In this document: positions 21,943 to 21,987 of the stretch, in pieces | Numbering within the stretch: position 1 is the first letter of the stretch | How the letters are laid out: every line of letters starts with the position of its first letter | From: Escherichia phage NHEP11 | Sequence record: PQ511149.1 | DNA length: 64,000 bases | Strand: one strand, 5' to 3' | Notes under the pieces: model-generated | What the model saw: only the letters and a program-made list of their open reading frames with translations | Database searches by the model: none | What the model was told of the DNA's origin: nothing | Translations under genes and position numbers: made by a program

Positions 21943-21987
21943 TTATTATCCAATGAGAGCATTATACTCTGCTCTCAAGAGTTTGTA
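21943..21987 (-). promoter_or_regulatory. early-promoter-like 45-bp element, identical copy at 51745-51789
   Basis: Minus strand has a -35-like hexamer, 17-bp spacer, TATAAT; spacer contains inverted repeat GAGAGCA...TGCTCTC. Confidence 0.5.

Follow-up and report, generated by a model that had tools for sequence, protein, structure and literature searches.

A 45-bp intergenic repeat in a T4-like Escherichia phage as a pair of predicted early promoters whose -10 boxes lie in hairpin loops

Both copies of an exact 45-bp repeat in Escherichia phage NHEP11 are, judged by their sequence organization, cassettes of a type known from T4-like phages, the PeSL (promoter-early stem-loop), and predicted early promoters. 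The explanation that we consider highly probable is that each combines an early promoter with a hairpin around its -10 box and that the two are kept identical by selection and occasional recombination. The window analyzed here, a stretch of 64,000 nt (PQ511149.1), shares 98-99% identity with genomes of Mosigvirus (T4-like coliphages of the RB69/HX01 group). Across the whole of it, the 45-mer TTATTATCCAATGAGAGCATTATACTCTGCTCTCAAGAGTTTGTA occurs exactly twice, both times on the plus strand and with a start-to-start spacing of 29,802 bp, and no third copy is found at up to 3 mismatches. The similarity reaches 62 nt at 95% identity (repeat family D11). The original prediction of an exact repeat present twice about 30 kb apart, intergenic and just upstream of minus-strand gene starts, is borne out. 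It had named sequencing error as a possible refutation; this fails, since every Mosigvirus genome examined has elements at the same two loci. Together with the absence of any 45-mer match in 100 dinucleotide shuffles, these same-locus copies rule out a chance or artefactual repeat. The repeat is real and, as far as its sequence can tell, under selection, yet ordinary for this phage group.

The genes around both copies, named here after RB69's T4-style annotation, all lie on the minus strand (Table 1). Copy 1 falls between the RB69ORF075c homolog and 55.2, its end 19 nt from the 55.2 ATG (21923-21921), and copy 2 between frd.3 and e.6, its end 23 nt from the e.6 ATG (51721-51719). Past 55.2 the order is 55.1, the ORF072c homolog and gene 55 (20471-21028; late sigma factor). 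Within the ORF072c homolog (ORF 21101-21370), which lies just upstream of gene 55, a 185-bp stretch at 21105-21290 is missing from phiE142 (L034). The name of frd.3 derives from the T4 frd (dihydrofolate reductase) region, the location of its T4 homolog; here the gene adjoins e.6. Transcripts from copy 2 likely end at the canonical hairpin that follows e.6, and a terminator is annotated at the corresponding place in ATK48. Elsewhere in the window, two minus-strand tRNA genes (53870-53943 and 53950-54023; Rfam RF00005, 71 and 54 bits) match the annotated RB69 tRNA-Arg/tRNA-Met pair.

Table 1. Coordinates of the repeat copies, their predicted parts and the adjoining genes in the window
Feature	Position	Strand	Remarks
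45-bp repeat, copy 1	21943..21987	minus (functional strand)	exact match
45-bp repeat, copy 2	51745..51789	minus	anatomy as copy 1
Extended repeat, copy 1	21942..22003	minus	includes A-tract and last codons of the upstream ORF (..K K stop)
Extended repeat, copy 2	51744..51805	minus	62 nt, D11
Copy 1 -35 hexamer TATACA	21984..21989	minus	abuts TAG stop (21990-21992) of ORF075c homolog
Copy 1 -10 hexamer TATAAT	21961..21966	minus	17-nt spacer
Copy 2 -35 hexamer TTTACA	51786..51791	minus	abuts TAA stop (51792-51794) of frd.3
Copy 2 -10 hexamer TATAAT	51763..51768	minus	17-nt spacer
Copy 1 stem-loop	21954..21977	minus	5' arm TGAGAGCA 21977-21970, loop GAGTATAA 21969-21962, 3' arm TGCTCTCA 21961-21954
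Copy 2 stem-loop	51756..51779	minus	identical to copy 1 stem-loop
Gene 55.2 homolog	21591..21923	minus	110 aa, DUF7570; first gene downstream of copy 1
RB69ORF075c homolog	21990..22229	minus	79 aa; upstream of copy 1
Gene e.6 homolog	51128..51721	minus	197 aa; downstream of copy 2
frd.3 homolog	51792..52019	minus	75 aa, Pfam Phage_FRD3; upstream of copy 2
Canonical GC-rich hairpin with T-run	51102..51119	minus	directly after e.6

Read along the minus strand, each element runs from the upstream stop codon and an A-tract through promoter and stem-loop to SD and ATG. Copy 1 has the layout AAA AAA TAG / TATACA / AACTCT-TGAGAGCA-GAG / TATAAT / GCTCTCA-TTGGATAATAAA...GAGGAAAATAAT-ATG, from which copy 2 differs in TAA / TTTACA. 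The AT-rich tracts 5' of the two -35 boxes are AAAAAATAG and AAAAAATAA, and the tract of copy 1 is formed by the final codons of the RB69ORF075c homolog. Of the -35 box, the 45-mer itself includes only the last 4 bases; it continues through the spacer and the stem-loop with its -10 box to ~12 nt into the 5'UTR. Agreement with the sigma-70 consensus is 10/12 for copy 1 (TATACA-17-TATAAT) and 11/12 for copy 2 (TTTACA-17-TATAAT). The stem is a perfect 8-bp inverted repeat, TGAGAGCA/TGCTCTCA, and its 8-nt loop, GAGTATAA, contains most of the -10 box; the 39-nt segment folds at -13.8 kcal/mol, with a z score of about -4.3 to -4.6. By standard sigma-70 spacing, transcription from copy 1 should start near 21954, roughly where the 3' arm ends. 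RNA made from the promoter itself would therefore lack the hairpin, which would form only in RNA reading through from upstream.

The other promoter types of T4 do not fit. A middle promoter would carry a MotA box (TGCTTtA) 11-13 nt upstream of the -10 box; the TGCTTAA in the upstream codons of copy 1 is at the wrong spacing and is missing from copy 2. The late box, TATAAATA, is absent from both copies when the sequence is read directly. With these motifs absent, a T4 middle (MotA-dependent) or late (gp55) promoter is ruled out. A known RNA family is ruled out as well, as Rfam gave no match to the element: besides the two tRNAs, nothing in the window reached the gathering threshold, and nothing in 21850-22080 matched at E of 1 or lower.

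PeSLs have been described in RB49 and phi1 (Arbiol, Comeau, Kutateladze, Adamia and Krisch 2010; PMC2839356) and in PST/T4 and nt-1/KVP40 (Comeau, Arbiol and Krisch 2014; PMC4122927). In such a cassette, an AT-rich tract containing a stop codon is combined with a sigma-70-like promoter, a stem-loop, for which five positions are described, an SD and an ATG; in a common subclass the stem-loop overlaps the -10 box (PMC2839356). PeSLs are multi-copy and lie in hyperplastic regions (PMC2839356, PMC4122927). The window elements show the same composition: both are intergenic, both have the AT-rich tract with the stop codon, and in both the -10 box sits in the loop of the hairpin. Copy 2 fits the early promoter consensus of T4/PST, TTTACW-N17-TAYWAT (PMC4122927), and copy 1 has one mismatch to its -35 part. 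As to copy number, three copies are located in the Mosigvirus genomes examined, and indels and alternative ORFs occur beside neighboring cassettes. The composite layout, the 17-nt spacer, the multiple copies between small early ORFs and the link to indels and ORF swaps are all shared with the cassettes of RB49/phi1, PST/T4 and nt-1/KVP40. The stems differ, being G4...C4 in RB49 and AGNA...TCNT in PST compared with GAGAGC/GCTCTC in the window. Whereas a figure legend on PST places most stem-loops upstream of the promoter (PMC4122927), the stem-loop of the window straddles the -10 box.

Promoter function is predicted here on two grounds, the match to the consensus and the orthologous sites that are listed or annotated as promoters elsewhere. 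Among the RB69 early promoters predicted by Nolan, Petrov, Bertrand, Krisch and Karam in 2006 (Additional file 3; PMC1524935), Pe:42515, Pe:72069 and Pe:165022 are, with positions checked, the orthologs of copy 1 (55.2), copy 2 (e.6) and a third copy at ndd, respectively. The -35 box of copy 1 (TATACA) is the weaker one, and its ortholog Pe:42515 has a low score of 8.9 in the published HMM scan (PMC1524935). In the GenBank record of ATK48 the e.6 copy is annotated as a host-type promoter. For members of the class in RB49, promoter activity was shown by lacZ fusion with PeSL206/205 (PMC2839356). The class is thus known, its RB69 orthologs are already on record as early promoters, and the novelty is low. 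The RB69 list scores promoters and does not describe the stem-loop, the repeat relation of the three sites or exchange between them (PMC1524935), and we found no PeSL catalogue for Mosigvirus (the RB69 group) in the literature searched. The original prediction correctly saw intergenic elements upstream of minus-strand genes and under selection; it did not recognize their PeSL nature, the third copy at ndd or the homologs in other genera.

A stable hairpin right behind a stop codon also invites another reading, in which the element serves chiefly as a Rho-independent terminator for the upstream ORFs and matches a promoter fortuitously. One GenBank record has the T4 homolog as a terminator on the basis of WebGeSTer/TransTermHP, and one RB49 PeSL stem-loop equaled the rrnB T1 terminator in its reduction of lacZ read-through (PMC2839356). 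We regard this reading as extremely improbable. The hairpin is followed by the tail UUGGAUAAUAAA, with no U-run, and terminator scans of both regions did not call it, which speaks against a canonical intrinsic terminator and leaves a terminator role uncertain. Moreover, the 10-11/12 promoter match, exact 17-nt spacer, A-tract and SD-ATG are conserved at all loci and in all genera, and the downstream genes would otherwise be without a promoter.

To examine the hairpin across genera, IMG/VR was scanned with a core pattern that placed no constraint on the stem positions; this gave 32 loci and 18 distinct sequences, and the latter were aligned. One pattern match without a stem and in an unrelated context (L023) was dropped as a chance hit. 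As the search pattern fixed the spacer and the -10 box, their conservation in the alignment is partly by construction and uninformative. The stems comprise GGGACC/GGTCC(C/T), GAGAGC/GCTCTC, GGGGTC/GACCCC, GGGAGC/GCTCC(C/T), GGGGCC/GGTCCC and GAGAGA/TCTCTC. Among the 18 sequences, 99.3% of cells are paired, versus 34-53% when the partner columns are slid, and both sides have changed in four of the eight stem pairs. The covariation score is 0.489 compared with 0.247 in shuffles, and none of 500 shuffles reaches the observed value. Because compensatory changes keep the pairing across genera, the stem pairing appears to be under selection, and by this comparative evidence the hairpin is selected rather than incidental. 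All 17 non-Watson-Crick pairs in the set are G.T or T.G on the sense strand, with no A.C pair. Since the G.U-type pairs of this cross-genus set are specific to the sense strand, the selected hairpin probably acts in read-through RNA. Within Mosigvirus, some 55.2 alleles have a broken pair (C.T in APCEc01, A.C in O157tp3) and phage SF is without the 5' arm, so the stem is dispensable at this locus.

Further elements of the form GTTTAC...stem...TATAxT...stem make up repeat families D1-D10 of the window. Nine of the 21 candidate early promoters with a downstream SD-ATG have a hairpin that spans the -10 region and has an MFE of at most -8 kcal/mol, compared with 7.7% of random 39-mers. Eight of these nine fold better as sense than as antisense RNA; across all 21 promoters the gain of sense over antisense folding is not significant (Wilcoxon p = 0.11).

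These data also bear on the idea that the inverted repeat is a DNA operator, bound by a dimeric phage or host protein that would shut off or co-regulate a small early regulon of 55.2, e.6 and ndd (motB in T4). The palindrome does overlap the -10 box, a classical repressor position, and a common core precedes several host-takeover genes. An operator should be conserved in sequence, yet the arms change while the pairing stays, the G.U-type intermediates of the cross-genus set occur on the sense strand only, and many other early promoters of the window have unrelated stems at the equivalent position. We therefore consider an operator very unlikely.

To establish how the copies are related, the element was compared across loci and genera. 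IMG/VR scans anchored on 5'UTRs gave few Mosigviruses, and GenBank records were used for this group. By BLAST, the element has 2-4 places in each Mosigvirus record; T4-type genomes show a single one, which is the promoter immediately preceding the early gene motB. The T4 promoter, GTTTACAAACTCTTG-GGACC-AGAGTATAATG-GTCCC, is homologous and has its stem at the same position; compensated changes set this stem apart, and another gene follows it. Many Mosigviruses, such as APCEc01 and moskry, have four BLAST places, of which those at 55.2, e.6 and ndd are located. A count of copies, which the original prediction had put forward as a check, gives two exact copies in the window and a third family member at ndd in Mosigvirus genomes. 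No element of this subfamily is present at RB69 motB, where the promoter differs. In T4 (L002/L038), a second GAGTATAAA box (GTGGAGTATAAAATC) comes after the motB promoter and aligns with the -10 region of the different RB69 motB promoter (L051 3810-3900), as if the T4 motB cassette had been placed in front of an older promoter.

Genes of at least seven unrelated families lie downstream of subfamily members: MotB, Ndd, Ndd.1-like, 55.2/DUF7570, e.6 and two others. The orthologous downstream genes have 54-75% protein identity. In Mosigvirus, the 55.2, e.6 and ndd copies have the common stem GAGAGC/GCTCTC and an identical 34-nt core. Elsewhere, the stem of the 55.2 ortholog is GGGACC/GGTCCT (L010/L016, contigs of ~155-170 kb) and that of the ndd ortholog GGGGTC/GACCCC (L011/L018), compared with GAGAGC/GCTCTC at both loci in Mosigvirus; contigs with this ndd stem have an ndd.1 cassette that matches Gaprivervirus phage P896. 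The T4 motB stem is GGGACC/GGTCCC. A second instance is seen in IMGVR_2706795408, where the copies at motB and ndd have an exact core of ~43 nt in common, with the stem GGGGTC/GACCCC, whereas the motB stem of its sister genomes is GGGGCC/GGTCCC. As stems cluster by genome and not by locus, homogenization or replacement by recombination between copies is implied, and the sequence pattern indicates that the paralogous Mosigvirus copies have been homogenized. The P896 element (L045) was rejected as a 55.2 ortholog, its translated downstream ORF being ndd.1-like, and the outgroup state for 55.2 was for this reason taken from L010/L016.

A closer look at the alleles bears on how the present identity arose. 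The e.6 copy is nearly invariant among 10 genomes. The 55.2 copy forms a local hotspot of variation: 18 of 60 columns vary, versus about 2 per 30 in the flanking genes. One allele, GAGAGAT...TTCTCTC, is found in RB69, moskry, phiE142 and ATK48. HX01 and the window share another, GAGAGCA...TGCTCTC, of which O157tp3 and a metagenomic contig have near variants. APCEc01 has a chimera, the left arm of one allele joined to the right arm of the other, and in phage SF the 5' arm has a 5-nt deletion. Six records match the 68-nt copy-1 region of the window at 99% identity or more, and ORF indels beside neighboring cassettes distinguish relatives. Between moskry and the window the flanking genes are 100.0% and 99.4% identical, and four clustered differences lie in the core of copy 1, each of which makes window copy 1 equal to window copy 2. 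We withdrew these differences as proof of ectopic conversion from copy 2 to copy 1, because a single allelic crossover between moskry-like and HX01-like parents explains the pattern equally well: in a site-pattern table, window copy 1 is moskry-type on the left (ORF075c, -35 box) and HX01-type on the right (stem, next A, 55.2). All four allele combinations occur around the base after the stem, a four-gamete pattern that could reflect exchange or recurrent transitions. From these patterns we conclude that a breakpoint inside the element would have made the present 45-bp identity, in an event either ectopic or allelic.

Could the identity simply be retained ancestry under strong purifying selection, with no exchange between copies and an incidental hairpin? 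The near-invariance of the e.6 copy is in keeping with this, promoter hexamers are expected to be conserved, and the C9/A10/G20 state of window copy 1 also occurs in the 55.2 ortholog of another genus (L010/L016), so that it may be ancestral. Nevertheless, three non-orthologous Mosigvirus loci share a stem unlike those of their own orthologs, which independent descent cannot explain; the compensatory double changes between genera show a selected hairpin, and the four-gamete patterns also speak against this account, which we judge unlikely. The original prediction, which offered selection or recent recombination, is supported in part: selection is seen in the promoter consensus and stem covariation, and signs of recombination in the stem shared by paralogs and the mosaic alleles, with either an ectopic or an allelic event behind the perfect identity.

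It had also been proposed that the repeats could mediate deletions or duplications. A crossover between the two copies, mechanistically possible, would delete or duplicate 29.8 kb. The two chimeric junctions of such a crossover, frd.3|55.2 and ORF075c|e.6, were built and searched in 162 Mosigvirus records, where neither was found at any place covering at least 80% of the query. The interval contains nrdD/G, 49, pin, nrdC, tk, regB, denV, e, nudE and more, and because 49, e, nrdD/G, tk, regB and denV are among them, its deletion should, on T4 biology, be inviable or crippling; a tandem duplication should exceed the headful packaging capacity of T4. In RB49, recombination between neighboring PeSLs yields mini-circles, by experiment (PMC2839356). 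Such excision is inapplicable to the present pair, since the copies are 29.8 kb apart.

Other cassettes of the window show rearrangements of their own. Two 34-nt promoter/stem-loop repeats, 52025-52058 and 52397-52430 (94% identical, D3), flank a 101-aa minus-strand ORF (52087-52392) in an arrangement that is the textbook PeSL geometry for mini-circle excision. Insertions or deletions fall exactly at these two cassettes in L012, L020, L027, HX01 gp045 and RB69 ORF145c. Across Mosigviruses, frd.3 is preceded by three different upstream sequences and ORFs (window 52020-52090), with the junction within the promoter/stem-loop. At the promoter/stem-loop of the ORF075c homolog (22230-22290, minus strand), the loop and inner stem are inverted between Mosigvirus genomes, reading GGAAGACATGTTATTATCTTCC in HX01, RB69, APCEc01, moskry and ATK48 and the reverse complement with one mismatch, GGAAGATAATAACA(T/C/G)G(A/T)CTTCC, in O157tp3, phiE142, SF and the metagenomic contig; in the window the loop is shorter by 3 nt. 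As the flip removes the sense-strand -10 box, it may be a natural promoter on/off polymorphism.

That one cassette stands before genes unrelated to each other, in different genera, and that breakpoints fall within it raises the possibility of a true mobile element, its hairpin being the DNA target of a site-specific recombinase or of a structure-specific nuclease (endonuclease VII, for example). A stem of 8 bp, however, is too short to extrude readily as a cruciform, and the elements are without target-site duplications, terminal repeats or an associated enzyme gene. The strand-specific wobble pattern points to RNA instead. In addition, T4 recombination needs only short homologies, according to Singer et al. 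1982 as cited in PMC2839356. Although the authors of the PeSL work themselves raised the possibility (PMC2839356), we give it only the slimmest of chances. A further proposal, that the hairpin is an active switch or mobility signal beyond an insulator, seems to us decidedly unlikely. As a switch, a structure in read-through RNA or in transient single-stranded DNA could couple upstream transcription to promoter firing; as a mobility signal, the structure could be recognized by a phage recombination function and the cassettes actively copied between loci, as a mobile promoter element. The hairpin-loop inversion at 22230-22290, by which some genomes lose the -10 box, would agree with a DNA mechanism driven by structure.

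Returning to the PeSL-type cassette, we propose the following course of events. The Lys-Lys-stop codons of the upstream ORF would double as an A-rich, UP-like tract for a host sigma-70 early promoter, T(A/T)TACA-N17-TATAAT, that would fire immediately after infection. From copy 1 it would transcribe 55.2, then 55.1 and onward toward 55, and from copy 2 it would transcribe e.6. The hairpin, present only in read-through RNA from upstream promoters, would most likely be an attenuator/terminator or a 3'-end stabilizer that insulates neighboring early cassettes, by analogy with the tested RB49 PeSL; the attenuator/terminator role is uncertain. The two copies and that at ndd would owe their identity to membership in one promoter subfamily, with purifying selection on promoter and stem pairing, while T4-type homologous recombination would occasionally homogenize or reshuffle these short dispersed repeats. 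The last step to 45-bp identity would have been recombination with a breakpoint within the element, allelic or ectopic.

The morons of lambdoid phages (promoter-ORF-terminator) are likewise self-contained expression cassettes for accessory ORFs. Unlike morons, the cassettes of T4-type phages match their phage in base composition, and homologous exchange at the conserved regulatory element has been proposed for them rather than illegitimate insertion (PMC1524935, PMC2839356).

Taken together, these comparisons extend the PeSL class to RB69-type phages, in a form with the -10 box inside the hairpin loop. For annotation, such repeats are better labeled early promoters than left as unexplained repeats. 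Compensatory evolution together with strand-specific G.U pairs in the cross-genus set is a small addition that argues for a hairpin acting at the RNA level, and paralogs sharing a stem that is absent from their orthologs elsewhere provide a simple signature of homogenization. Finally, the occurrence of one cassette before at least seven unrelated early genes supports the published idea of these cassettes as gene-shuffling linkers.
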